Shown piece by piece: positions 37,831-53,197 of a stretch of DNA of 64,000 nt. The notes under the pieces are model-generated. The model saw only the letters and a program-made list of their open reading frames with translations. It did no database searches and was not told the origin of the DNA. The position numbers were made by a program, and so were the translations under genes. Source of the stretch: Paecilomyces variotii (lineage: Eukaryota); the NCBI GenBank assembly GCA_004022145.1, contig RCNU01000007.1. The stretch is one strand, 5' to 3'. The first letter of the stretch is position 1; each line of letters opens with the position of its first letter.

Positions 37831-38085
37831 CTTGGCTCCAGGAATAAAGAGAAAAAATGTGCCCTCGACTGGATGCAATAAGTCAGATATCTGCAGCACT
37901 GAAAATAATGTCTTATCGATTGAGCGGTTCAACTTTTTTGGATGTTTGCAGAAGGACTTGGCATGTTTGCATCGCTAGTTCTACTTAGCCGTGCGCCGAT
38001 GTTAGTCCGATCCGCCTGTATCAGATCAGATACAACGGAATCGTCCCTGCTCCAACATCCCCAGTTGACGCGACCGGTGGATGCA

Positions 38086-39547
38086 ATGGCTGTCAAGACA
38101 TTTTCCACAATGCGCAAGGCATTGTTTGGCCTGGTGCTTGGAGTGGTCCTCTTTTCTGTCCTGGCCGCTGCTGGTGTAACCCCCGCCCGTGCTGATGTTG
38201 CTGTCGGAGAGCTCTCCGTGGGACAGATCGAGGGGCAATTGCAGGTAGGCACTCTGGTCTCTAGACATTGTATATCCTTGATATAATAGTAACTGGTGCC
38301 CCATTAGGAATGTTCCTTTGTTCAGGCACTCAATGAGCACAAGCGTGCAACAAACCCAGAAACCGCAAGTCTGACATCGCGCATCTTTGCTGTTCTCTTC
38401 CCTGGTAGCCCTGCGGTTAATTCGATCCTGGCGACTCTCTATATTTCTGGACCACCTAGTGCGTACAATATGGCCGGCTAAATGCTATCTGCCTGACCGT
38501 TGCGTTGACTGTTGTCAGATTTCCTTCTTGCACTATGTCCGCCTAATATCGACCCCTCATCCCTCTCCGTTATGGTAGCATTCGCAGTCGGTGGACTCTT
38601 GGGTGACACTCTTTTCCACCTGCTTCCGGAGATCTTCCTGGGAGAAGATTCCCCAGATCACGTGCGGTTCGTGATGGTCGAGCCTAACAAGAACCTGCTT
38701 CTTGGCTTGGCCATAATGGTGGGCTTCTTGACGTTTGTCGCTATGGACAAGTCACTGCGCATTGCTACTGGAGGGGACGGTGGTCACGACCATGGCCACG
38801 CCCATGCGCATCAATCCACGGTGGAAGATAGTGCTGTGACAACTAGCTCGAAGTCCAACAAGGACAACAGTGGCAGCGAGCTGAAGCAGCGGAAGTCCAA
38901 GACAGAAGCCGGCGCGCCTAAACACGAAGAGCATGAGGAGAAAGAGATCAGCCAGAGCGTCAAGCTTGGTGGCTACCTGAATCTGATTGCTGACTTCACC
39001 CACAACATCACTGATGGCTTGGCACTATCATCTTCTTTCTATGCATCCCCGACCATAGGTGCCACAACCACCGTCGCTGTTTTCTTCCATGAGATTCCTC
39101 ATGAAGTGGGAGATTTCGCCTTGCTCATCCAATCCGGCTTCTCGAAGCGTAAGGCTATGGGAGCGCAGTTCGTCACCGCTGTAGGGGCGTTCCTCGGAAC
39201 ATGTATCGGTATTGCCGTGCAGGAGTTCGGCGGAGGGAACTCATCGGACGCGTCTGCGGCGACATCTGCTACCGGTCTTCTCGGAACCAGTCTGACATGG
39301 GGTGATATGCTTCTACCGTTTACTGCCGGAACGTTCCTTTATGTGGGCACTGTGGCTGTTATCCCGGAGCTCCTCGAAACCGGCAAGGACAAAGGCGCCG
39401 AGCTTCGCAAGACAGCTACTCAATTTTTGGCCATGGCGGTCGGCGCTGGAATCATGCTAGGGTAAGTTTATTCGACAGGGACCTTGTTTAAGCCGTGAGT
39501 TCAATTGCAACTTTGCTGACAACAATCACAGAATTTCTTGGGATTAA
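38086..39547 (+). CDS. YKE4: ZIP (LIV-1/ZIP7-type) zinc transporter, YKE4-like
   Basis: Introns 38245-38307, 38459-38518, 39462-39531. FAVGGLLGDTLFHLLPE, His-rich loop HDHGHAHAH, NLIADFTHNITDG, FFHEIPHEVGDF. Confidence 0.9.
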
Positions 39548-40467
39548 TCTAAGAACAAGTCATCTATCTGACATGCAGCGCTCAATCGCTCGACCATGTT
39601 ACATCCAACTAATGCAACCCATCGAAGGATAGTCCCTGCATCATCCGCAAGAATATAACTTCGTGTACTATAACCCCTGTTTATAAACATAGACAAGGTC
39701 ATCAATCTAGAAGTAGCACAAGGCCAATCGAGAAACAGACGTGGCACGATGCAATCTACAAGGGTCAAGTCAGCTTGATTTATAATCACATCATGCTTAT
39801 CGTAACATGGCGATTGGAGTGGCACGGCATATGAAAGACAATAAACCTAATGTATAACCAGATTCTACGATATCATGGCTACCTATAACGTGACAGTAGG
39901 ATAATGTAACCCGCGGGAATTAGGACTTGGAATATTCTTACGTCTACCACTATGCAGCATGTATGTAATAAGCAGTAAATGAACCGCGATAACGACGTAG
40001 GTTGCCTAATAACAGGCAAGGTATCCTCGTAACCAGACGAGCAAGTAGCTCAGAACAGTACCGTCGAACATACCGCGGCACAACACCGTGGGACGTAGTA
40101 CAGTAGAATACGCCATTTAGTCTCATTTCGAAAGATTTAGCTTTATCCTTTTCAGGATCATATACATCATGAAACTGTCAATATAAAGTAATTTGGAAAA
40201 TGAATACACAGTTGAACTTATATATATCTATGTATGAGCCTGAGGCTGTTTTCACGAACGACATTGCTAACTTGCTATTTGAAACAACAATGCATGTTAT
40301 ATCATTGTTTCCATATGTTGCGAGTAATAAGAAACGTTTTTCGAATGCCAAAATAATGAACAGGCAAAGAACAGTACAACCTCGTAAAAGAGACATATAA
40401 GACCATGCACACATGCATTTAGTAAACAATGATGGCACAAGAAAATGCAACCGATCTCACAACAATC

Positions 40468-41842
40468 TTACTCCCTAATCCAATCGAATAGTCGATATGC
40501 TAGAGCACGAGAGGGATATTCAACCAATCTATAGAACAGCTCTGCGATGGGAACGACAGCTGCTAGACAGACTATGAAGACTGTGAACACAGAACCTTCC
40601 GAGGGCCAGTGTTTCTCCTGGTTCAGGTGGACGAAAAGTTTGATTCCCGCAGTGTATATAATGATGCTTTGGACTAGGAGCCAGCCTGTCGTAGATTGAG
40701 GTTAGCCTAGGCTGAAATAAAAGAGTGAATATGTTATGGAGTAACTCACTAAGCGACCTGCTTCCAAGGTAGACGAGAACTGAATTCCTCAATAGCCGCT
40801 GGAGGAAGTCATAGGTCTCCACGGCGAAGAAGATGGCTACCAGGATTAGGTAAATGTCATCTCTGGCCTGAGGCTGGGCCGGATCATATTTGTTATTCAA
40901 ACCGCCAGTGTAGTAGAGACCTGCATGTGCAATGATCTCTGAATCTACATCCTGTGGTTTCCATCCAGTCCAGATGAATTGCATTATCAAGCCAGCCGCC
41001 ATGAGTGCCGAGTATAGGATCCACGACGGAAAATAGATGTTTCTGGATCTCCAGATGGGTATTCCCCTTCGTGCCTTTTCCTTAAAGTTCATGTTGAACA
41101 CCATGTCGGCGAGAATCAGGCCGGTCACGGTAAACCATGCCCATGACTGAACCCACCAAGCGGTGATAATGAACAGGACGGAGCCCTTAACACGCCATGA
41201 GTTCCTCGTGTAAGGAATGATGAGCATCGCCATATAAACCGTGTAACTCTGCATGTAGATCACATTCACAACCCAGAGTAGTTGCGAAGGGAAGGCATAA
41301 CTGCCAGCAGATGTTGCAAAGTTCTGCGTAATCCAGAACATGTTGAAGACAGAATTGAAATACACGAGTGTATTTGGCATGTAATAGGGCGTGTCGAAGG
41401 ATACATTTCCGGTGAGGGACTTGTAATTGTCAATGTATGCCGTTCCCATTTTCCAGAACATGAGCTTCACGACGGCCAGGGAGACGGCCACAGGAAACCA
41501 GAGACGAAGCCCACGTCGGAAGACAGAGCCTGCGATTCCGGACTTGTCTGGGTTCTTGAGAAAGGGTAGACATATTGTCCTAGCAGATACAAGGATGAAG
41601 AAAGAATAGATGAGGTTGTCATTCCAAAAGAGAACGGAAAGGGTCTTTTTCAAGTAGATCTGATAAGCTGGCCCATAGATGTTGGCGGTTCCTTTGACAG
41701 CCCCTGGGACGAGTGTCTGCAGAAAGACCCAAAGAAAAGATTCTATAACAAATACTCCTCTGAGTCCATAGAGGTAAGAACTCTCCTTGTCGGGGACAGC
41801 TGGGTATCGAGGGCGGACAATTTCATGCAGTAGTACCTTCAT
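40468..41842 (-). CDS. acyltransferase-3 (OafA/IcaC-like) polytopic membrane protein
   Basis: Exons 41842-40750 and 40685-40468 (intron GTGAGT..GCTAAC..CAG). YLYGLRG, FFILVS, FRRGLRLWFP, LWVVNVIY, YLGSRSLSWLLVQ, FYRLVEYPS. Confidence 0.85.
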
Positions 41843-44131
41843 CTTGCCGATTGCCCTGACAGTTCGCTGTTAGGTCGTCGAAAGTACCTCAGAGGGGAGC
41901 TTTCTTTATCACAACAGTTTGTCCATGTCGCATATACTTTCCCATCCATTACACTTCAATGAGGTATAGCACTTCTACTGAGCCCCAGCAAGGTCTAGAC
42001 TATCAGCTGTTTCTTCGGCAATTGTTTACTCCACTGTCCCTCAATCCCGGATTCACGGAGCTGACCACCCGCCTTCTGCTGCTCGCAGGGCTGGATTACC
42101 GGACATTTGAACTAAGACATGTCCAATCGATAGGCTGAACATGCACTGCTCAAACTATACGACACGGACTGACAGTAGGAAACCCATATACAAGCCACAT
42201 AAATGCCGTAGGAATGGAACGAAGCTGCACCCCCTCTCACTCACCGGTAGTACCTTCTGGCCGTTGAGGCCCTTGGCCAGCATATCCATGTCCAGATGGC
42301 GTCCCTCGTATTCAGCACGCCACTAAAGATGGCCGATGTGGCAGATGCAATTGCTAACTCGTCCTGACAATGCTAATACTGATCTAATTGTAGCACTTTG
42401 TCGGGATCGAGACGAGAATCCGGCTGTCGCTCGCTAAATCAACATCGGGCCGTCGTTGGACTTTGTTCTCTATACCCATTACCAGTGTTTGACAACATTT
42501 TCACGAGCCCAGAGCAGGACCGCGAGAAGACTAACCTGCTCTTGCTCAAAATAGGGACATTGAGCCAGTCTGATTATCTAGAAAGCTCTCCGGCGCTTTT
42601 AACAATATGCATACTTATCTTTCGGGTTTCACTGATGGGATTCCATCCAGAATGTGTCCGAGACTAAAGTCTAGGGGCCTCCCAATCGGGCTGAATGGCT
42701 CAACTGGGATGAGTTGGCACTATGGCAGTTACCATCCCCAGTCAAGATAGATAGCCTATTGTCCGTTTAGAGTCCAGAAGAGCTGACATATTCATGCCTC
42801 CTCGGAAAGCTGAAGAGGCTGGAACACGCCAACCTGTAGGGTCCCCGCCGGTCACGAACGCCGAGTCTCGGACCGACTGCACAACGATGCTCATTTCACT
42901 ACTATGCCAGCTCAGTTGGCGCATCATAGTGCGATTTGCCGATAAGGCTAGGATGGCTGATTCGGACAGAATTGCCGTGGCTTGCATGCAGGGCGGCGGA
43001 TGCCTCAGGTAGCGCCGGAAGACAACAAACTACTGCGCGGACACGCCGCGCTAGGTACGGAGTAGATTGTGTTGATTGATTCAGCCTAGTTTTCTAATCG
43101 AGAGTTCGTTTCGAATTAGGTCCGCGGGATGCCATGTGGTCGAGACATCTGGTCTCTGTGGTTGGGCCCTTGCTGTCCATATTAGAACGTGATGATTGTC
43201 TGCTTATTCTCACTAATATAGCGCTCCGCCATCCTCCCAACGTGGAATCTAGCCTTCATATACCTAGGCATTAGGTCCCTAGGCCGAGACCATAAGTATG
43301 TCCTTAAGCGAGGCGGAGAGCCCGTTACCCGACAGTACGGAAGAAGGTCCATGCTGTCAGACTCTGCCGGAACGGAGTCGAGAACGAAAAAGCAACATGA
43401 GACTTGGGATCGGTGGATCGGTGTGAACGAGCTCGCTCTCTTCACCGCTGCCAGGTGTCAGCAGAAGAGCCTCATTTCGCTTCTTGCTACCGGATCTGTA
43501 CAAGAAGGACTTGGCCTCAATGTTTTCTGGATGACTCCGTGTCCGGTCCTGAATGTCAGATGTGATAAAAGCCTCGTATAAGAAAATACGCTAACGTCGT
43601 CCCCCTGGAAGGTTCCAAGCAGATGGGAAATGACAATCGTAAAGCTTGGGTCGTCACTCTCGGGCCTATCCGGGCCACATGGCCCACGGTTCATGAGGAA
43701 TTATAGTTCCTGGTCAGCTCGAGGTTGATCGCGGCTGATCGTCAATATCATAGTCTGTGCTTCTTAATTCCTGCCTTTTAGCCGAGATGATGGCGTAGTA
43801 ACTTGGCCTTCAGCTTTCTTGACTAGGTCCATGGCGTAGAGTAGTGTACTAGAGTCGATTTCTACGGGGATGTCCGAAGATTAACCCCGCTTCGAGGGAA
43901 GCAACAACGGAGATGATGATCAAGTAGTCTATCTAGATAGGTACGCTAACGCACACTGCAACTTGCAGAATAGGCTTTTTAGCAGTTCTCAACGGCAGGT
44001 TCTAGCCCAACCAAAACGCTCTTCGTGGCAATGGATAGCGTCTTGATCGGTTACATGAACATGACGCTAATGTCTTGCAAAGTAGTCTCTAAATTGAACA
44101 GTTCAATATCGTACGAGGGGTCGTGTCATAA

Positions 44132-44179
44132 AGTTCTATCATTTGTATGGAATATAGTTCTATCAACTGTATGGAATGT
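44132..44179 (+). repeat. 24-nt imperfect tandem duplication just 3' of the GT2 stop
   Basis: agttctatcatttgtatggaatat / agttctatcaactgtatggaatgt. Confidence 0.8.
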
Positions 44180-44219
44180 AATGATACCGTCTCTTCGGCT
44201 AAAGTGTCTGCGCAGGCCT

Positions 44220-45791
44220 TCACCCACGAGCAGTCGTGTTCCAGGAAGTATATTTGCTAACCTGTCGGGCGTGGCCGTAAAGACCAACGACTGCGGTTAC
44301 GACCAGGTAGATGGGGTAAAGGATCGAGAACATGATGATCATCGGCAAGGAGATGAACTCGGATTTTGCTCGATCTGTGATCCACAGGGTTGCCACAAGA
44401 CAGATAGCACTGAAAAGGAGAGCACGTCAGCATCCGCGGATTACAACAGTCAATAACGGAAATCTTCCATACCTGACAATAAACAGCCACTGGGATATCG
44501 GGTACTGGAAATATATCAAGCGTGCAAATGCTATCGGGTTCTTCGGGAAATGAAGGATGATGACGCTGAGAACAAGGCAGCAGTACTGCGTCACAAGGTA
44601 GTAGCTCATCTCTCGAATAAGCAGGAGTGATAAAAGCCCAAAGCGCATCTTCTTGTTCCGGCTGCCCTGAGTGGGCTTGTTGAACGTCAAGATGACATGT
44701 CGCATACTGGCCGCGGCCCATCCCTGGGCCCAGCGAAGGCGCTGATTCCAGAGCGCCAGCCAGGTAACAGGAGCAAGCTCATAGGAAACCACGTTCAAGT
44801 CGTGCTCGATATGTGCACCACGAGCGAGCGAGCGTAGGCTAGAATCGATGTCTTCAGTCAACATCTTGTCGTCCATCCTCACTTCTCGAAGGAACGGCGA
44901 CCTCCAATATCCGTTTGAACCGGTAAAGAGAGCAAACCCCCACAGAGCAGAGCGACCAGGGTGAGAAACCGCATAGATCTTGTCAAATTCCACTGATATC
45001 ATTCCTGTCATGAAAGACACAGCAGCATTGAAAACCACGCATCGTCCCTGAACGATATCAATCTTCGGATTCGACATGAAGCGTTCAATCGCCCACCGTG
45101 GTCCGTAAGGATGGGTGTAATGATCACAGTCGAATATGGCAATGACATCGGACCCGGTGTCCAGGGTGAGGAAATAGTTGAGATTGTGCGCCTTAGACGT
45201 GGAGTTCGGCACCTGCACGATACGAAGGTTTGAATGCTCTCTTGAAAGCTCTCGTAGCTCCGTTTCCAAAGGCTCTATGGGGGTAGGGGTGTTGTACACC
45301 ACATTGATCGTGATCTTGTCTTTTGGGTAGATGATCTTTTCCAATGCATAGTGCACGCGGTCAAGAATGATATCCTTCTCGTTTGGGAGATATGCCACGA
45401 TTATCAAGTCCAATTTCAGCAGTTGGTCGTCTGGAGTGGGAAACACCCATCCGTTGGCTTCAACTTTCATTCGGGCTTTTCTCGCATCTCTCGCAGGGCC
45501 CATACACATGAAGGCCTCAACGAAAGAGTTGCCCGCGATGTAGAAGTTGGTTGTGAGACATATAAACCAGAAGATCTCGATGAGTTTTGTGCTGCAGACC
45601 ATGTATATGCAGGTCGAGAAGAAGAAATAAGATGCAACTAGAAGAAATGGCGTCCAATCTTGAATGAAGTCTGCTACCTTCTTTAATGCGGCTTGTAGAG
45701 AAGAGAATCGCGGTCGAGTGCCCCTCAGGTCAATCTCAGAACAGGCCATCGGCCTGGCCGTAACAGTAAGAGTGGACTTTTCAGGAGCCAT
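44220..45791 (-). CDS. processive glycosyltransferase family 2 (cellulose-synthase-like beta-glycan synthase)
   Basis: ATG 45791, intron 44472-44410. Two N-terminal TMs, AYLPNE, SKAHNLN, IFDCDH (DxD), VQG, GSNG, LTEDID, QRLRWAQG (QxxRW), C-terminal TMs and a WNTTAR tail. Confidence 0.93.
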
Positions 45792-47570
45792 GGCAAGAAA
45801 GACAGTCAATTGGATGTGTGAGAAAGAAATTGCACAATTGACAAGTAGATGAAGGAATCGTCCTGATTATGTCCTGGTGATGATGATACCAGTCTAGTTT
45901 TCCGAGATTAGAAGGCAGTCAACATGCTGAACGGGGCCCAGACCTTCAGATGCAAAAAATATAGTCTTTCATGATGATGGCATCACACATCGCTTTGCGA
46001 CTAACCATCCATTGGTTGGACTTCACCGGGGAGGATAGTATTATGGCTCGGCTGTATAGTCCCGTAAGACAGTTGCTGACAGCTACATTAGGGCCAGGGT
46101 TCAGAAAGTCTCAGGGGAGAGATACACAGTCTGTACAGCGCCTTGTAGATGTGCACCGCCGCCATTGGACACAGTTGGGATGGGTCCGCATCAATCTCCC
46201 AAGTCACCAACACGAGAGCGAATCTGGTGTTCAGAAGTGTTGAGCCACGCCAATTTTAGTGCCAGGCTGGACTTACACTGTACAGATGTGTAGCGAGGAT
46301 ATCGTATCTTCACTTAGCTTTTTCTTTGGCGTCTCCGATCCTGGGCTTTTTCTGACAAGCCACTGGGCTGGGACGCCACCCCGTAAACAGAGCGCCCAAC
46401 GAGCGCCGGTCCGTAAATTAGCACGCAAATAGAGTCTGGACTTTAGTCTTCTAAGCACTGCATACTAAAACATAAGCTATTCATAGTGTCTTTACCATGT
46501 GTTGTCGTGTTGGAGGCATGATCGCTGCGCATGGAGTGTCTACCTTATTGTTTGCATCGGACAAACCTCTAGTCAGCTCGGGTTGATCAGTTCGCGCTAG
46601 ACATGGCGCACTAAGGATCGTATCTACTTCCTTCCAAGCGAGATTCCAAGACCTCTGTCTGAAAGGTGCATCTGTAGCGATTCCTGAACGAGGAAATAGT
46701 GCGGTCATGAAATGAAGTCACCTTGATCATGGATCGGCTTAGGCTAGAGTATGATAGAGCACCTTGAGTATAGAGCTTGAAGTATTCGACATTTCCTTTC
46801 AAGTCGTTCACAAAGTCTATTTGGGTTATCTATCCATGTCATAATCGCCCAGTAAATTGGTCTCGGCACATGGGTAGCGTTCATTTCTCGATGATCTGAA
46901 ATGGAGATCCAAGAACCTCCCACGTTATGGCTTTTGGTACGAACCAATTTCGCATTGCCATACTAACAGTGGGCCCATACTTGAGGAACAAGCCATTTTC
47001 CTTTGGAGTTAGAAAACGCTACATGCAGGTTCGCATCACGCCCGGCGAACGCCGTTCCGGTCATTGGTGACAATCCATATTACCCAGCCTAGCGGTGTAA
47101 GAAGCAGCCACCCGGACTACAACCTGCATAATCAGCCCTAGGAAACGAGCAAGAGAGCTATTGATGAAACAAACCCTATCAATGCCTTGGAACATGTCTG
47201 TGAAAAAGAATTGCCGTGACTATACCTGTCGAGATGGCCGGGTTGAACGGAGTGCCCGAGGACATAGCGCTCAAATAGATCATGCTACCAGGTGGATACA
47301 GTCCAGGATGTGGAGATAGAGACGTTCGAACCCAAGAGAAAGCTGAACTGAGTATTAGGCGTTAAGTGTCGCAGCTAGTCATGGTCTAGAACTATACGGC
47401 CAGGGCTGGCTATTGTATCTCAACTTGTATGCCTTCTCTCCACTGGTGTCGGCTAATTTGAGCTTTTCTGCTCTCCCCATCTTTGCCTCTGGATGGGACT
47501 CTATACAGGAATCTCTGAGCATTATCTCTAGCTTATATTAGAGATATAGGTCCTTCATAGGTCCTATCTG

Positions 47571-50500
47571 ATGACTTGTTTCGGGATACTGAGGGCCCCT
47601 TTCTCTCCACGTTGCTCCATGATGAAGTTTAGATTCCCCATCCCACTACTTCTGTCCTTATATCTTTTACCTTCTGCGGTCATTGGTAAAGACAGTGATG
47701 TTTTGATCTCAGGGACAAACAACACAGACTGTTCCTGTGGTTACTACGATGAATCGACAAAAAACCTCTTTACAGACTCGATCATTGTATATTTCAATGA
47801 AACTTCTTCATTGGACTTGACCGGCTTCGCTGGACAGACATACAAGAACCCTTACGAGAAAGGATGGAACGATCAATATCGTCAAGGGGCCGACCTCTCC
47901 CATTTGCAGATAGTCAATGACTCCTCCTCGCCAGAATTTCCGCAATCGCTAGCAATCAACATCTCCAAACCGACCGCCGACCATCTCGTTATGGGTGGCT
48001 CCATACAGACGTTGAGACATGACATTCACTACGGAACGTTCAGGACGTTCCTCAAGTCCCCTCGTCAGTGGACAGGCGGAAGTGCAATTTCGATGGAGCT
48101 TCTCTATAATGAGACCGAAACCTTCAGTCTGAACCTGTTGAGCACCGAAGAACCGTCAACTGCTCGAATCACGATGTTGATGAACCGCGAGTTCCCAGAT
48201 AATATCTACGGTGTCAACTACACCACTCTGACAAACAAATCCACCTCCCCGTGGGAGTTCATGGAGTATCGAGTGGATTGGACGAAGGACTGGCTCAACT
48301 ATACTCTTGGCGATAAGGTCTGGCGCTCTGCATCGAGGAGGGAAATCAAAGGATTGCCTAGTGTTCCCGGGCCATTACATATCAAGCATTGGTCAACCGG
48401 AGACTTCTTCTCGATGCAGGGGCCCCCATGGGCAGAGACGACTGCAAATGTAGGCTGGGTTCGACTATTCTTCAATACGACCTCGATGAGTGACTATGCA
48501 CGCAAGGCGTTCGACACCACATGTCGGGTTGATGCCGCGTGCAGAGTCGACGACATGAAACTTCGCGGTTATACATCTTACGCCCAAAACGCAACGACGA
48601 AATGGAAGCAGAATCCCCCTTCCGCCGGCCAACGCATCCCGGCAATTGTCATCTCTGTCTTGTCCGGAGCCCTCAGCTTCTTTCTATTACTGAATGCATT
48701 CTTAAGAAGACAGCCATGGGCGTTGCTGAGACCCGAGAAACGCTACGGAGCTCCGTTCATAAGAAGCTTGTTTCCTGCGGGCACGACGTCCTCCACAGAA
48801 ATGATCACTCTGCCCACTCCACCTCCAATAGAGGGCATTTCTGGACTGGCGACGCCATCAGGAAATGTGTCTGGTGTTGCTACGCCTTTAGGGCAGCCTC
48901 CTGCGATGCCTTCAGACTGGGTGAATGACGATATATCAACTCTGAGGATGTCATTGGCTCCTAGCAAAGCTTTCAGTGAACTAGAAATTCAACCGGTAGT
49001 CGGTATTTCTCCTTTGAGAACCTCGTTCACTCCTAGCAAAAGCTCTACGGGATGGGAAATTCAGCCAGTTACAGACGACACATCAACTCTGAGATTTTCT
49101 TCCACTCCAAGCAAAGGCTTTAACGAGTTGGAAATAGGGTCGGTAGCGGAGACCTCCATGAAGGCCTCGAAGGAAGAGAACACGACAATAACTGAACTGA
49201 AAGATGTTACAGCCCAGCGTGATCCGGCTCCTAATGCAGATGGTACCGCCGCTGCTGCACCTGCTGCGAAGAAGCGCGTCGACTATCTCGCCGGGCTGGT
49301 AGCAATAAGTTCTCTCCTAGTCACACAGATTCATTTCGGACTTACCTTCATCCCTGCTGCAATAAACCCTGGAGCATATCTGCATTACGAGAGTGAGATC
49401 TGGGCTAGAAAGACTGTTACCCCGTACCTGCTGAATCTCATCTGGATCGGACCGTTCCTCATGACCTCCAGTCGGTTCCTGGCAGCCAACTATCTCAAAA
49501 ACGGTAACCTGAGGTCATTGGCAGAGAAAACAGTTGGACGGACTCCGCGCCTGATCATCCCTATAACCGCTATTGCCCTCATCGAGTATTTCTTCATGGA
49601 TGCAGGCGCAACAAAATGGCTAATGTACCTTCCCTCCATTACATGGTCCACCTGGCCCTTCGCTGTTGGCTATACGAACTTCGGCACCTTCATTAGCGAG
49701 GTGATCGAACTGATGTTCCTGATTCCGAATGCAGCCCCTCAGATCACATTCAACTATTGTACGGGTGTGTTGTGGACGATTCCCGTGCAGCTCCAAGGCT
49801 CATGGCAAGTAATGCTCGGGGTCATTGTTATCCGTGAGATTAAAACCCCATGGAAGCGGTTCGGATACTATGCCTTCTGCATCGTCAACAACTGGTACGC
49901 TCTATCCTGGGGGTCCTACTTCTGGCTCGGCCTAATGATGGCCGATCTGGACATCACGTATAAATGGAGAAAATGGCTGTACGCACGCCCTTTCGTCTAC
50001 TATCCCTTAATCCTCTTCTGTGCCGCACTTGGCTTCGGCGGCCTATCACTCGATTTGGCCACACAATGGACAGAGGTCAACTATGCCACCTATGAATACG
50101 ACATCCATCCAGACCCAGCCACTGGCCGACCGATTGCACAAACCTCCGGTGCAGGATACCCACAATACTACGTGCCCAAACTACACGGATTAGTCTTCTC
50201 GCTCGGTTTCCAAGCACTCGTTGAACTGAGCCCCTTGGTCCAAAAGATGCTCTCGTTCAAGTTATTCGTGCTCATCTTCCCGCACATCTTCACCATCTAC
50301 CTCATCCACGGCTTCGTGTACTGGAGTCTTGGCGCGACTATTTGCGTACAACTCTCTGCACTCGGACTCCCTTACTGGGCCAATATTCTGATCGTAGCCG
50401 TGTGCTGCTACTCTGTCATACTTCTGTCTCTTCCACTTCTAACCCCCGTCGTGGAGACGCTAGGCAAGAACATGACGGCGGATATATGGCGATTCGCACA

Positions 50501-50651
50501 TGAGAAACCGCCGATTAGGAAACCGACTCTGTATCCATTTGATCAGAATCTTATCCTTAATCGTGAAGACGGACTGGTTGAAACGACGAAGGTGAGAGAG
50601 AAAGCGCTGGGAAAGAGAGCATCGGGTGGTTCTTCTGTGGATAATGTCTAG
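47571..50651 (+). CDS. fusion protein: signal peptide + GH16/concanavalin-like domain (degenerate active site) + TM + S/T/P linker + acyltransferase-3 domain
   Basis: Intronless 1026-aa ORF, likely start at ATG 47619/47622. CSCGYYD, DIHYGTFR, FMEYRVDWT, HIKHWSTGD..GPP, TM IPAIVISVLSGALSFFLLLNAFL, then RVDYLAGL..HF, GRTPRL, GVLWTIPVQLQGS, FTIYLIHG. Confidence 0.9.
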   Translation: MTCFGILRAPFSPRCSMMKFRFPIPLLLSLYLLPSAVIGKDSDVLISGTNNTDCSCGYYDESTKNLFTDSIIVYFNETSSLDLTGFAGQTYKNPYEKGWNDQYRQGADLSHLQIVNDSSSPEFPQSLAINISKPTADHLVMGGSIQTLRHDIHYGTFRTFLKSPRQWTGGSAISMELLYNETETFSLNLLSTEEPSTARITMLMNREFPDNIYGVNYTTLTNKSTSPWEFMEYRVDWTKDWLNYTLGDKVWRSASRREIKGLPSVPGPLHIKHWSTGDFFSMQGPPWAETTANVGWVRLFFNTTSMSDYARKAFDTTCRVDAACRVDDMKLRGYTSYAQNATTKWKQNPPSAGQRIPAIVISVLSGALSFFLLLNAFLRRQPWALLRPEKRYGAPFIRSLFPAGTTSSTEMITLPTPPPIEGISGLATPSGNVSGVATPLGQPPAMPSDWVNDDISTLRMSLAPSKAFSELEIQPVVGISPLRTSFTPSKSSTGWEIQPVTDDTSTLRFSSTPSKGFNELEIGSVAETSMKASKEENTTITELKDVTAQRDPAPNADGTAAAAPAAKKRVDYLAGLVAISSLLVTQIHFGLTFIPAAINPGAYLHYESEIWARKTVTPYLLNLIWIGPFLMTSSRFLAANYLKNGNLRSLAEKTVGRTPRLIIPITAIALIEYFFMDAGATKWLMYLPSITWSTWPFAVGYTNFGTFISEVIELMFLIPNAAPQITFNYCTGVLWTIPVQLQGSWQVMLGVIVIREIKTPWKRFGYYAFCIVNNWYALSWGSYFWLGLMMADLDITYKWRKWLYARPFVYYPLILFCAALGFGGLSLDLATQWTEVNYATYEYDIHPDPATGRPIAQTSGAGYPQYYVPKLHGLVFSLGFQALVELSPLVQKMLSFKLFVLIFPHIFTIYLIHGFVYWSLGATICVQLSALGLPYWANILIVAVCCYSVILLSLPLLTPVVETLGKNMTADIWRFAHEKPPIRKPTLYPFDQNLILNREDGLVETTKVREKALGKRASGGSSVDNV
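48927..49148 (+). repeat. three about 24-25 aa internal repeats in the linker of the fusion protein
   Basis: ISTLRMSLAPSKAFSELEIQPVVG / ISPLRTSFTPSKSSTGWEIQPVTDD / TSTLRFSSTPSKGFNELEIGSVAE. Confidence 0.85.
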
Positions 50652-50997
50652 CGTCGGGTGTTGTGTTAACTAGGTATCTAGCCTTGTCTTTCCACATTTA
50701 GATGTGTTTATCTTTTTAAAGCAGTAGTAAGTATAGAGTTGCATCTATGTGAAACTTGTCACTATCCATCTCGATCATGGCATAGTGGAACTTTCTATCA
50801 TTGGCCGGCTCCTAGTTAGTAATCGAACAAGCAAGCTTCTCGGCTCTTGCCTCTTGAATCCCAACTTGCTTTCACCTCAGTGACAACTTGCTTTCGCATG
50901 AGCATAGCTTCGGTTCCAGGATTTTATCAGTGTGAACGGTTTCGCGTTTATTAATCGCACATACCTCCGTTCTGAGCCAAAGTACTAGGTATTCAAT

Positions 50998-51353
50998 ATG
51001 GCGCCGCCGGGTTTCTCTCCTGCCTGTCCGATACCCCTCGTCATCGATCCGCAGACAAGAATCAAGGAACTCAAAGACGCGCTTACGGAGGACTGCTGGC
51101 AATACCAGAAAGCAAACATCTTAAAACTCATTGAACTATACGAAAGTGGAGAACTAAAACCTCCCTCTTACGATACGACTATTTGGCTTTGTGATGGAAA
51201 GGTGTTAGATAAAGAACCTGGACTTGATGACGTTCCTAGAGGTTCTGTGCTTTGGGCTGAGGTTAGTTATTATATTAAGCATGATTGACCATTGCTTTTC
51301 TAATCATTATGTAGGGGCTCGGTATGCAGATCTCCCCGGTAATTGCCCAGTAG
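50998..51353 (+). CDS. small hypothetical protein (about 100 aa)
   Basis: ATG 50998, intron 51262-51314 (GTTAGT..CTAAT..TAG), short last exon GLGMQISPVIAQ*. Confidence 0.65.
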
Positions 51354-51542
51354 CGGTACACATGTGGACAAATTGTCAGCTGGGGTTTAGACCCTAGACC
51401 CGCAAGGTTGGAAGCGCCCCATCTTTGTTTGAGGTAGGAAGACTGGAAGACTCCTTGACCTAATTTATTGGGTCTTCGACCTGCTGTTCTTTGGCGCGAC
51501 TGGGGTGCCTTAAGGTTAAAGCCAAACCGAATCCATTTCAGA

Positions 51543-52874
51543 TCAATCAACAACAGTGAACTCGACAAAATTGGATGACGGGACCATTATAACCGGCCTT
51601 CCATCATTATCAGGAGGGTCAACGACATGATCATTTAGCCAACATGGTAGTTTCACCACTGTCTTCGCATGCTCTTCACGATCACCCCAAACCCACCAGT
51701 CAACGCAGCCACCCCAGTACTGGTATCGATATGTGTCGCCAATCACTGTATCGGGATGCAAGTCGAAATAGCCCAGGGAACGGTGTTTGACGAAAGTTTC
51801 TCCTGGTTTGAGGCTGAGGAAAAGCGTAGAATCCGTAACGTTAACCTCAACGTCAGGTTCATCTACAATCATCCAACCCGGATTCCGTTCGTCGTCGAAA
51901 TAAGTCTTCCACTGTGTAGGATCCTCGTCTGAATTCTTCAACGGATTATAATCGTGGCAGCGGCGCAGCAGTCGAAAGTTATCACTTAAGAAAGGGTAGT
52001 TGTGTATGATGATCGGCTTTGTATCAGCACAGATAGTAGCATCGTGATCCTCGTTTGTCAGACCATCATATGTGGTCTTCACTGTAATACGGATCTTTTC
52101 CGTTTTAGAAATCTTCGATGGGCCTTCCAGAGATACACTTATACAAGGGGTTCCAGGGCTGTAAAAGAGTATCAGTCACGGGAAAGACGAAAATTACCTT
52201 GGAGGGTTTCTCACATTCGTTCCGATTTCTCCACCCGAGGATCGTCGGGTTCAAAGTCCGAACGTTCTTCCACCTCTACGCAGGTAAAAGAACAGCAGGC
52301 TCCCCCCGGGATGACAACAGGGGGTAGTCCCGAGTTAACCCCAATTTCTTGATCCCAATGCTCACGTAAGGTGCCCCAAGCCCACAAGGCATATTCAGCT
52401 CCCGGCCAGAATAGCTCATACCTCTCACCAGCGACCACGTGGTCCCAGAAGGGACACGGGTGGCCTATGTTTCTTCGGAGAGTTTGGCCAGGCAGGAGTT
52501 CTTCCGTCTCAACTTCGTATCCTGTAAGCTTGAAGGTCTGGGGAGGTGGCGATTTGGGCGTTCCCTCAACCATTTTCAGACCGTCTGGCGTGTGTTGAAA
52601 GAGCATGAAGCCAGAAGGACCCCATCCATCACGCACGACATTCCAGCGGAAGATACAAGGCTTGTCACAGTCATCTTCTGCTCGACGGATAGTGATAATA
52701 AACCCTCTCGGTTTATCTAGTGATATGACTGAACTAGTAGGCTCAACCTCCATAGATAGTCTGGGCGTATTTGGACTAGGAGATTTGTTAGTTTGGAACA
52801 ATGGGCAGGCAGGGAGAATCTCACGGTCTATCATGTTCAAAGAATCTGATATTTGATTCAAGCTCAGGATTCAT
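51543..52874 (-). CDS. hypothetical protein with two homologous Trp-rich beta domains
   Basis: ATG 52874 and introns 52824-52776 and 52214-52159 join the two ORFs in frame. LLPGQTL..VAGERYELFWPG..WAWG is repeated as LKPGETF..VIGDTYRYQYWGG..WVWG. Confidence 0.8.
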
Positions 52875-53197
52875 GGCAGGTTAAACGAAAGGTAAGGGGA
52901 AAGTAGGGAAGGTAAGAAGAATTAGGAAAAGAAAGAGATGGGGGAAGATAGAGGGGGGGAGAGAGAGACTCGTTACCCGTTGAACTAGTATTTACTTATG
53001 TGGGGTGGTGTATGGTAGAACCCTTTCTCAGTGATCTTTTATTCTAAATGTTGGCTAGCACATGTCAAACAGCGGATCACATTTACTGATGGAAAATGGC
53101 AAAACATGAGTTAGAATAATTTATGATCTATATCCTAACAGTCAAAAAAGAATCACTGACAGAGTCTATATAAGCTCAAATCAAGTTGATATATATA

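Follow-up and report, generated by a model that had tools for sequence, protein, structure and literature searches.

A three-gene locus conserved across Pezizomycotina and predicted to be a fungal counterpart of bacterial synthase-plus-AT3 exopolysaccharide systems

The window analyzed in this study is a 64,000-nucleotide stretch of the fungus Paecilomyces variotii (contig RCNU01000007.1, GenBank assembly GCA_004022145.1), and its positions 40468..50651 carry three adjacent genes that encode a stand-alone membrane protein of the acyltransferase-3 (AT3) clan, a family 2 glycosyltransferase (GT2), and a fusion protein in which a GH16-fold domain is joined through a transmembrane segment to a second AT3 domain. 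By sequence comparison, the trio appears to be a strongly conserved functional module of Pezizomycotina, present in at least four classes, and it probably constitutes a bacterial-type synthase-dependent system that would make an extracellular or wall glycan and modify it on emergence. Judged from its parts, it reads as a fungal version of the exopolysaccharide scheme by which bacteria combine a synthase with an AT3 protein, set apart by its particular fusion architecture.

Apart from chitin, beta-1,3-glucan, alpha-1,3-glucan, galactosaminogalactan and mixed-linkage glucan, the synthase is known for few fungal polysaccharides, and co-located genes for a fungal polysaccharide are rare. The compact and strictly co-inherited trio occurs in lichen-forming fungi, food-spoilage moulds and plant pathogens (Botrytis, Sclerotinia, Monilinia, Pyrenophora, Ascochyta and Botryosphaeriaceae), and its parts predict a decorated extracellular glycan not yet tied to genes. 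It bears on the makers of pustulan-like beta-1,6-glucans or other minor wall and matrix polymers, on the O-acylation of fungal glycans outside the Cas1 route, and on the possible domestication of a bacterial exopolysaccharide operon by fungi. Public records name the trio proteins as hypothetical, "GH16 domain-containing", "glycosyltransferase family 2" or "acyltransferase 3 domain-containing". Literature searches, with most subscription journals outside their coverage, returned no paper on a fungal GT2/AT3/GH16 cluster, and the three-gene module is apparently uncharacterised.

Linkage of the three genes across fungi

Profile scanning of Joint Genome Institute (JGI) metagenome contigs with the GT2 alignment recovered 80 loci, which were dereplicated to 55 groups, and 17 of these were flanked by 6 kb or more on either side. 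In this set, all 15 groups with a GT2 at least 45% identical carried the stand-alone AT3-like gene and both parts of the fusion (GH16 and AT3) within 10 kb. The remaining two groups, with GT2s below 45% identity, had none of the partner genes, and one of them was clearly bacterial. With a flank of at least 4.5 kb, the trio was present in 18 of 19 groups, the only miss being cut by a contig end. Among the 20 complete groups, the order found in the window, namely fusion on one strand followed by GT2 and the stand-alone gene on the other (-, +, +), occurred in 15, and two other orders occurred in four and one; GT2 and fusion lay head-to-head in 19 of the 20. When all open reading frames (ORFs) of the flanks were clustered, no fourth gene common to at least five loci was found beyond the trio. 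The varied gene order and the lack of a common fourth gene therefore point to selection on the trio rather than to inherited synteny.

Named genomes gave the same picture. Consecutive or near locus tags were found in Sarea resinae (M1819_002080/81/82), Rasamsonia (VTN77DRAFT_6504/05), Coniosporium (H2199_003213/14), Monilinia (EYC80_000891/892), Stromatinia (EAF04_000833/835) and Cryomyces (LTR16_000989/991), and consecutive ones also in Caeruleum and Lecanora, with named matches spanning Eurotio-, Dothideo-, Leotio- and Lecanoromycetes. An initial annotation of the window, made from its letters alone, had proposed that the three genes work as a unit and had named orthologues unlinked in most genomes as the outcome that would speak against it; linkage in all 15 qualifying loci and in named genomes of several classes is what was observed.

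The GT2 synthase

The GT2 gene (44220..45791, minus strand, with one intron at 44410-44472) encodes 502 aa. The protein matched the Pfam families Glyco_trans_2_3 (PF13632; E 1.3e-17, 64.7 bits) and Glyco_tranf_2_3 (PF13641; E 6.5e-12, 46.4 bits), in both cases above the gathering score of 27. Membrane GT2 synthases are characterized by the motif series D, DxD, TED and Q-x-x-R-W. In the window protein DCDH, TED and QRLRW are legible in the translation, and D221, D223, T312-E313-D314 and Q350-W354 are invariant in all 24 aligned family members, which bears out the DxD/TED/QRLRW assignment of the initial annotation. The best solved relative was BcsA (E 1.6e-5), and the GT2 motifs aligned with the same motifs of BcsA. 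A strong hydrophobic segment (residues 49-67) precedes the catalytic domain and three more (395-413, 428-446 and 463-481) follow QRLRW; together these flanking segments could form the predicted translocation pore.

The best NCBIfam model was PgaC_IcaA (TIGR03937), matched at 3e-24 over positions 43-407 of its 407. The score of the closest public protein (P0121), 85.7 bits, is below the cut-off of 422.3, that is, the protein is not an equivalog of that model. The CelA-type models TIGR03030 and NF008558 scored 50.8 and 42.3 bits against cut-offs of 699 and 992, again below (CelA E 7e-14), and the Pfam scan found no PilZ domain in the GT2. By these profile comparisons the protein has the PgaC/IcaA build and, because of its family resemblance to synthases of the PgaC/IcaA/BcsA type, it is predicted to be processive and to export its product.

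Two further GT2-related lineages were seen. A paralogous and divergent "pseudo-GT2" family (P0389, P0407, P0422, P0425, P0471, P0472, P0482 and P0415) is 27-30% identical to the window GT2 over full length and is devoid of AYLPNE, DxD, TED and QxxRW, with weak or no Pfam GT2 matches. In one of its members, P0415 (1423 aa, predicted), the pseudo-GT2 is followed by a GH16-like/transmembrane/AT3 homologue 37% identical to the fusion; this may be a real fusion or two gene models run together, and because of the latter possibility it was not counted as a "Rosetta stone" link between the GT2 and the GH16/AT3 protein. Judging by this family, some organisms may possess a degenerate second copy of the module. 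The other lineage is an outgroup represented by a single-exon eukaryotic GT2 (L069:3456-5021), 36% identical to the window GT2 over full length, which adjoins a glucosidase II beta-subunit-like gene and has no AT3 or GH16 neighbor.

Prokaryotic relatives of the GT2

When prokaryotes were scanned with one genome for each species, 80 loci (L082-L161) were recovered, mostly from filamentous cyanobacteria and Actinomycetota, with GT2s 32-46% identical. A hidden Markov model (HMM) built from five neighboring AT3s detected a same-strand AT3 gene next to the GT2 in 17 of the 80 loci, upstream in 10 cyanobacterial loci and downstream in 7 actinobacterial ones; since this HMM is narrow, 17 is a lower bound. 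The bacterial neighboring AT3s are canonical (PF01757 at 1e-15 to 7e-29). The initial annotation had likened the locus to the GT2-plus-AT3 logic of bacterial exopolysaccharide operons, and this likeness is strengthened by the finding, since prokaryotic homologues of the very same GT2 adjoin an AT3. The pairing is thus probably homologous and not merely analogous, and it supports a functional coupling of the two activities in the fungal locus, as far as gene neighborhoods can tell. An old transfer of a bacterial GT2-AT3 pair into fungi is plausible, and the bacterial GT2-adjacent AT3 HMM weakly matched fungal fusion ORFs (L034, 1e-4; L005, 3.4e-4).

Examples of the bacterial pairs are L123:6657-10432, L131:6209-9200 and L148:7355-11819; in L148 the ORF at the GT2 match also carries BcsB. 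Relatives from a representative library, 40-49% identical over the catalytic core, are long multi-domain proteins, and those scanned against Pfam carry REC and GGDEF domains, BcsB, or a TPR-PgaA porin. A paper on Actinoplanes exopolysaccharide (PMC13390465), in its searched passages, deals with Wzx/Wzy and GtrA-type clusters and was set aside as not relevant.

The GH16-fold head of the fusion protein

The fusion gene (47619..50651, plus strand) is a single exon encoding 1010 aa, in the order signal peptide, GH16-fold domain, transmembrane segment, linker and AT3 domain. The protein had 433 homologues at E <= 0.001, of which the best 120 are 829-1422 aa long. PF00722 was matched at E <= 0.001 by 25 of the 29 aligned members (best 1.3e-8), and by the window domain at 3.5e-4 with 20.5 bits, against a gathering score of 22. 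The N-terminal 345 residues comprise a hydrophobic signal-like start, 10 N-x-S/T sequons and 4 invariant cysteines (38, 40, 302 and 308), and a transmembrane segment comes next; on these grounds the GH16-like domain (about residues 35-330, 47721..48608) is predicted to be extracytoplasmic. The single transmembrane segment (residues 340-358, 48636..48692; hydropathy 2.41) is found in all aligned members. It is followed by a poorly conserved Ser/Thr/Pro-rich linker of about 190 aa (48693..49274; T 13%, S 13%, P 12%), unalignable and variable in length, which is likely to be cytosolic since a single transmembrane segment follows the secreted domain.

The model of the GH16-like domain had a mean predicted local distance difference test score (pLDDT) of 77.2. 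In Foldseek it matched lichenases (1u0a_A, 9.6e-12, TMt 0.72; 1gbg, 1.7e-11) and Crh5 (6ibu_B, 7.8e-10), all with probability 1.0, and laminarinases were also among the matches (E 1e-11 to 1e-9). The best sequence match of the family profile among solved structures was Crf1 (E 1e-5). In the profile alignment to grapevine VvEG16, the catalytic strand D-E-I-D-F-E lies opposite t-a-w-v-s-t: the position of the nucleophile is Ala182, invariant in 29 of 29 members, and the other catalytic positions are V/I at 184 and T/M at 186, never acidic. With A-x-(V/I)-x-(T/M) standing where active GH16 enzymes have E-x-D-x-E, the domain is assigned, by alignment, as a GH16-fold pseudo-enzyme, and it probably binds glycan. 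Its fusion to an AT3 is an architecture undescribed in the literature searched. The gene had been read in the initial annotation as a divergent, secretory GH16-like domain joined through a transmembrane segment to an AT3; the families, the topology and the divergent orientation stand, and the GH16 domain turns out to be without all three catalytic residues.

A different reading of the catalytic strand was tried and rejected. The stretch SMELLYNE (E160...E165) looked like a GH16 catalytic strand, but E160 is unconserved, N164 starts an N-x-T sequon, and the profile puts the strand at A182-M186. An active transglycosylase role of the domain was rejected for the same reasons.

The two AT3-like proteins

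The AT3 membrane domain of the fusion spans about residues 553-960 (49275..50498, plus strand). It matched PF01757 at E 0.011 (15.2 bits) in the window protein and at 8.8e-4 (18.9 bits, HMM positions 9-324 of 326) in the closest public protein (P0001), in both cases with fewer than the 31 bits of the gathering score; at E <= 0.001 the family was matched by 16 of the 29 aligned fusion members, best 7e-9. H589, E593, S617, R619, R641, R644, P648 (within R-x-x-R-L-x-x-P), H830, D832, H889 and H897 are invariant in the domain. The five bacterial GT2-adjacent AT3s share the motifs LDGxR, a helix-2 serine, RRxxRLxP, W-x-L-S-x-E and S-Y-S-x-Y-x-x-H. According to an hhalign correspondence of only 8.5% probability, S617, R641-x-x-R644-L-x-x-P648 and Y894-L-x-H897 of the fusion are kept and invariant, and two positions are changed, the LDGxR arginine to Ala558 and the glutamate to Gln724. 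From these residues, the AT3 domain of the fusion looks competent.

The stand-alone protein (436 aa; 40468..41842, minus strand) was aligned to the membrane domain of the fusion by BLASTP with 23% identity (E 3e-10) and by hhalign with 98.8% probability (E 7.4e-17, 355 columns), and by these measures it is clearly a paralogue of that domain. Only 3 of its 25 family members match PF01757 (best 0.0084) and 3 match DUF418 (best 2e-4), and its profile gave no match at E <= 10 among the sequences of the PDB. The AlphaFold model (pLDDT 71.8) was compared by VIA-align in its wide setting, and the top fold matches were 8jkv_A (Z 11.5; titled only "membrane proteins"), HGSNAT (8tu9_B, Z 11.1) and GWT1 (8xik_A, Z 8.5), each covering about residues 18-424, with a partial match at Z 6.6 next. 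Z values of this range for helical bundles are not decisive on their own; here the sequence evidence points the same way, as do the atlas neighbors, the nearest atlas clusters carrying PF01757 in 14% and 90% of their members. Taken together, paralogy and the modelled fold place the stand-alone protein in the AT3 clan. It keeps G-L-R28-G and F-R-R-x-x-R-L-x-x-P117, and an invariant loop histidine is common to both paralogues (H306 in the stand-alone protein, H830 in the fusion). By its residues it may or may not be catalytically competent.

Two other comparisons were discarded. Foldseek of the stand-alone model against the PDB gave nothing at E <= 0.001, and its top rows were G-protein-coupled receptors with TM-scores of 0.1-0.2, which is noise. 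The hhalign comparison of the fungal AT3 profiles with a single E. coli AT3 protein, WecH, was uninformative (probability 0.2%).

Comparison with known systems

Both staphylococcal icaADBC and E. coli pgaABCD, the loci for poly-N-acetylglucosamine (PNAG), pair a GT2 synthase flanked by membrane helices with a multi-pass AT3-type protein encoded beside it, as the trio does; IcaC is AT3-like. When the trio is held against an operon of the ica/pga type, the synthase lies together with two AT3-type genes in all 15 qualifying loci, and no deacetylase or export gene is conserved. In contrast to the PNAG systems, flank clustering found no conserved IcaD/PgaD, deacetylase (IcaB/PgaB) or porin near the trio, which is eukaryotic and has two AT3 paralogues, one of them fused to a GH16-fold head. 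The cyanobacterial and Actinomycetota pairs share with the trio a GT2 of 32-46% identity and an adjacent same-strand PF01757 gene; unlike the trio, they have no GH16-like partner, their AT3s are canonical and some of their GT2s come with BcsB.

OafA, OafB and OatA consist of an AT3 membrane domain fused to an extracytoplasmic SGNH domain that meets the glycan. The fusion resembles them in joining an AT3 to an extracytoplasmic domain, but its outer domain is N-terminal, has the GH16 fold without hydrolase or transferase catalytic residues, and is not accompanied by an SGNH domain. The Crh/Crf1 transglycosylases and GH16 lichenases share the fold of the fusion head, from which they differ by E-x-D-x-E in place of A-x-(V/I)-x-(T/M); the head is tethered through its transmembrane segment to an AT3, rather than being glycosylphosphatidylinositol (GPI)-anchored or secreted. 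HGSNAT and GWT1 match the stand-alone protein structurally over nearly its whole length (283 residues aligned each), although the sequence identity is 10-12% and their substrates are lysosomal glycosaminoglycan and GPI inositol, respectively.

Among fungi, the galactosaminogalactan cluster of Aspergillus is a case of co-located exopolysaccharide genes with bacterial parallels (PMC4817252). None of the families of its genes gtb3, agd3, ega3, sph3 and uge3 is found in the trio, in agreement with the initial annotation, which had set the two apart. According to passages of three papers (PMC9500679, PMC5653360 and PMC4344333), the non-chitin GT2 synthases of filamentous ascomycetes are Cps1/CpsA, Cps2 and Tft1/CelA, with mixed-linkage glucan as the product of Tft1. 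Cps2 is presented in passages of PMC9500679 as a Cps1 paralogue confined to "Leotiomyceta", patchy (missing in 14 of 39 species), uncharacterised, and never seen expressed in Botrytis. The same passages give Cps1 one N-terminal and two C-terminal transmembrane helices and place its W motif in a C-terminal tail on the cytosolic side. In the window GT2, three hydrophobic segments come after QRLRW (350-354), and 21 residues separate the last of them from the C-terminus at residue 502, so that by the published description it is distinct from Cps1. The searched passages of the Cps and Tft1 papers mention no AT3 or GH16 neighbors, with 0 occurrences of "acyltransferase".

Proposed mechanism

A mechanism can be proposed in four steps. 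The GT2, a member of its family by profile and motif, would take a cytosolic uridine diphosphate (UDP)-sugar, polymerise a chain that should be beta-linked because GT2 enzymes invert, and thread it through its own transmembrane pore. The AT3 domain of the fusion, placed by fold and family, would carry an acyl group, most likely acetyl from cytosolic acyl-coenzyme A, across the membrane, as HGSNAT and bacterial AT3 proteins do. At the exit site of this domain, the dead GH16 head may capture the nascent chain for O-acylation, in a role likened to that of the SGNH domain in bacterial AT3-SGNH acyltransferases. The least certain step concerns the stand-alone protein, which might add a second acyl decoration or else assist the fusion or the synthase without being catalytic itself.

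Several findings weigh against the proposal of a glycan-making and glycan-acylating module. Its support is computational throughout: what was observed comprises protein families and folds, motifs, paralogy, gene linkage, transcription and the GT2-AT3 pairing of bacteria, and every chemical step, as well as the identity of the sugar, is predicted from these. The window's own AT3 and GH16 domains score below the Pfam gathering thresholds, and the stand-alone protein matched no Pfam family even at E 10. Accordingly, the two AT3s claimed in the initial annotation can both be retained as members of the clan, by family, paralogy and fold, provided that both are seen as divergent and the stand-alone one as having no Pfam match of its own. 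This protein has a glutamine at the histidine of the C-terminal Y-L-x-H, which is invariant in the fusion and in five of five bacterial AT3s. The helix-1 histidine after the LDGxR arginine, which we take to be essential in OafA, is absent in the stand-alone protein and shifted in the fusion; it is also missing in two of the five bacterial AT3s, and was therefore not treated as disqualifying. The hhalign comparisons of the fungal AT3 profiles with the bacterial GT2-adjacent AT3s reached probabilities of 8.5% and 16.8%, collinear over 300-328 columns, and HMMs of the stand-alone protein, the fusion and the GH16 domain gave no match at E <= 1 among the 1616 ORFs of the 80 prokaryotic loci. In addition, flank ORF clustering found no deacetylase, epimerase or export partner conserved near the trio, and the support from expression consists of the contigs of one sequencing run, which carry no levels or co-regulation.

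Alternative explanations

It is conceivable, if unlikely, that the AT3-like proteins are no acyltransferases at all: the glycan would then be unmodified, the AT3-fold proteins would serve as pore, scaffold or anchor partners, and the dead GH16 domain would tether the polymer to membrane or wall. Non-enzymatic synthase partners of this kind exist in bacteria (IcaD/PgaD and BcsB), the stand-alone protein is without both histidine positions, the first-helix arginine of the fusion is replaced by Ala558 with His572 in only 26 of 29 members, the GH16 domain has already become a pseudo-enzyme, and the related pseudo-GT2 lineage would make loss of catalysis frequent in the system. This is opposed by the invariant R-x-x-R-L-x-x-P, second-helix serine and Y-L-x-H histidine that the fusion keeps in common with five bacterial AT3s, by the loop histidine (H306/H830) invariant in both paralogues, and by the PF01757 matches of 16 of the 29 fusions, best 7e-9. 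That the product is a short secreted oligosaccharide signal rather than a structural polymer, for example a chito-oligosaccharide from a NodC-like GT2 that is O-acetylated as by NodX or NolL of rhizobia, is very improbable in our judgement. NodX and NolL are AT3 proteins and fungi do secrete lipo-chitooligosaccharides; moreover, NodC belongs to the same GT2 group, and two relatives from the representative library, P0365 and P0423, match the NodC HMM at 7e-11 and 4e-10. However, P0121 has no NodC match at E <= 1e-5, against 3e-24 for PgaC_IcaA and 7e-14 for CelA, no conserved N-acyltransferase or deacetylase for the roles of NodA and NodB lies nearby, and a glycan-binding head anchored in the membrane is easier to reconcile with a polymer than with a signal that diffuses away.

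The GT2 might instead be the named Cps2 paralogue of Cps1/CpsA, or the mixed-linkage glucan synthase Tft1/CelA, in which case only its neighbors would be new; we hold this to be unlikely. The range given for Cps2 in passages of PMC9500679 does resemble that of the named matches (Eurotio-, Dothideo-, Leotio- and Lecanoromycetes), yet the Cps1 topology described there differs from the three hydrophobic segments after QRLRW, and the same source reports Cps2 as missing in Sclerotinia sclerotiorum, a carrier of the fusion gene (P0082). The atlas cluster of Ascomycota named "Hyaluronan synthase, putative" ranks 18th, behind cyanobacterial GT2 clusters, which is a lead only. As for Tft1, passages of PMC4344333 report orthologues in Aspergillus, Fusarium, Trichoderma and Metarhizium, and none of these genera is among the species-named rows of the best 120 GT2 matches. 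Finally, chance adjacency or inherited synteny with no functional link is disfavoured, and we give it next to no credence: fungal genes are usually not grouped by function, but the trio is kept in 15 of 15 qualifying loci with nothing else common in the flanks, the genes stay together in three arrangements, and the GT2-AT3 pairing recurs in bacteria.

Returning to a module that makes and acylates a glycan, a more specific version can be offered, with little confidence: the trio would be the genetic basis of a pustulan-type, partly O-acetylated beta-1,6-glucan, derived from a GT2-AT3 operon that an early lineage of Pezizomycotina acquired from bacteria. In this version the 1,6 linkage would be the work of the PgaC-like GT2, acetylation would fall to the AT3 domain, and the beta-glucan would be held by the dead GH16 head. 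It is based on the best curated synthase model, PgaC/IcaA, being that of a beta-1,6 polymerase, and on fusion homologues named in Lasallia pustulata (P0006), in Phyllosticta citricarpa (P0109) and in the Botryosphaeriales Neofusicoccum, Diplodia and Macrophomina (P0037, P0090 and P0093). Pustulan is the dominant glucan of Umbilicariaceae, and O-acetylated pustulan-type glucans are the title subject of Nishikawa 1970, as cited in passages of PMC7164778; exocellular beta-1,6-glucans are recorded for Guignardia citricarpa and Lasiodiplodia theobromae in passages of PMC6268985. The overlap of taxa is a correlation only, and the cluster is also present in many fungi for which we know of no such polymer.

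Gene models and transcription

The three genes were mapped by tblastn of the closest public proteins, all of them Paecilomyces variotii entries of 96-99% identity, which places the stand-alone and GT2 genes on the minus strand and the fusion gene on the plus strand. For the stand-alone protein, P0241 (436 aa, 96% identical) aligned to 41842-40739 and 40692-40471; for the GT2, P0121 (502 aa, 99%, titled "CAZyme family GT2 [Paecilomyces variotii]") aligned to 45791-44223; and for the fusion, P0001 (1010 aa, 99%) aligned to 47619-50648 as one exon. By these placements, the limits 40468 and 50651 are the two outer stop codons. Reading of the frames gave one intron in the GT2 gene and one in the stand-alone gene, the latter consisting of exon 1 at 40749-41842, an intron at 40685-40748 and exon 2 at 40468-40684 including the stop. 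The contigs of run X1 omit exactly 40685-40748 and 44410-44472, with CT..AC borders as expected for the minus strand, and nine more stretches with intron-type ends in and around the trio. Since its contigs skip both introns and these nine further stretches, run X1 was taken as RNA, and all three genes, each spanned by spliced contigs, are transcribed in it. Runs X2, X3 and X5, which are food-fermentation metatranscriptomes, were rejected as evidence of expression: over the window positions 38000-53000 their contigs, at 95-99% identity, show no splicing and extend across introns and intergenic DNA, which makes them look like DNA of a related strain rather than RNA.

The nine small ORFs (80-157 aa) between the three genes had no Pfam match at E up to 0.1, and a search of 39500-51500 for Rfam families likewise came back empty; the three genes are thus consecutive, with no other recognizable between them, as had been annotated initially. 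The spacer between the stand-alone and GT2 genes (41843..44219), which measures about 1-2 kb in other fungi, is transcribed up to 43063 in run X1: the second record of that run covers 40749-43063, that is, the contig of the stand-alone gene runs 1.2 kb upstream of the ATG. The ORFs of the stretch 41843-43063 have no Pfam match, and its RNA represents either an unusually long 5′ leader or a transcript in its own right. The GT2 and fusion genes point away from each other across a common intergenic region (45792..47618). Within this divergent promoter, low-depth (about 4) spliced minus-strand RNA of run X1 was seen at 46440-46610, with introns at 46441-46495 and 46542-46609, and the GT2 gene may have an alternative 5′ exon there, further upstream.

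Neighboring genes

On the far side of the stand-alone gene, a plus-strand ZIP zinc transporter gene (PF02535, 3.4e-62) occupies 38000-39600, with introns at 38243-38305, 38459-38518 and 39461-39530 confirmed by run X1; according to the clustering of flank ORFs, it is not kept beside the trio in other fungi. Downstream of the fusion gene, the region 50989-52870 holds a plus-strand spliced gene with an intron at 51260-51312, as well as minus-strand ORFs at 51543-52175 and 52211-52870 with introns at 52159-52214 and 52776-52824, none of which has a Pfam match. The two minus-strand ORFs are alike by eye, which suggests a small duplicated family.

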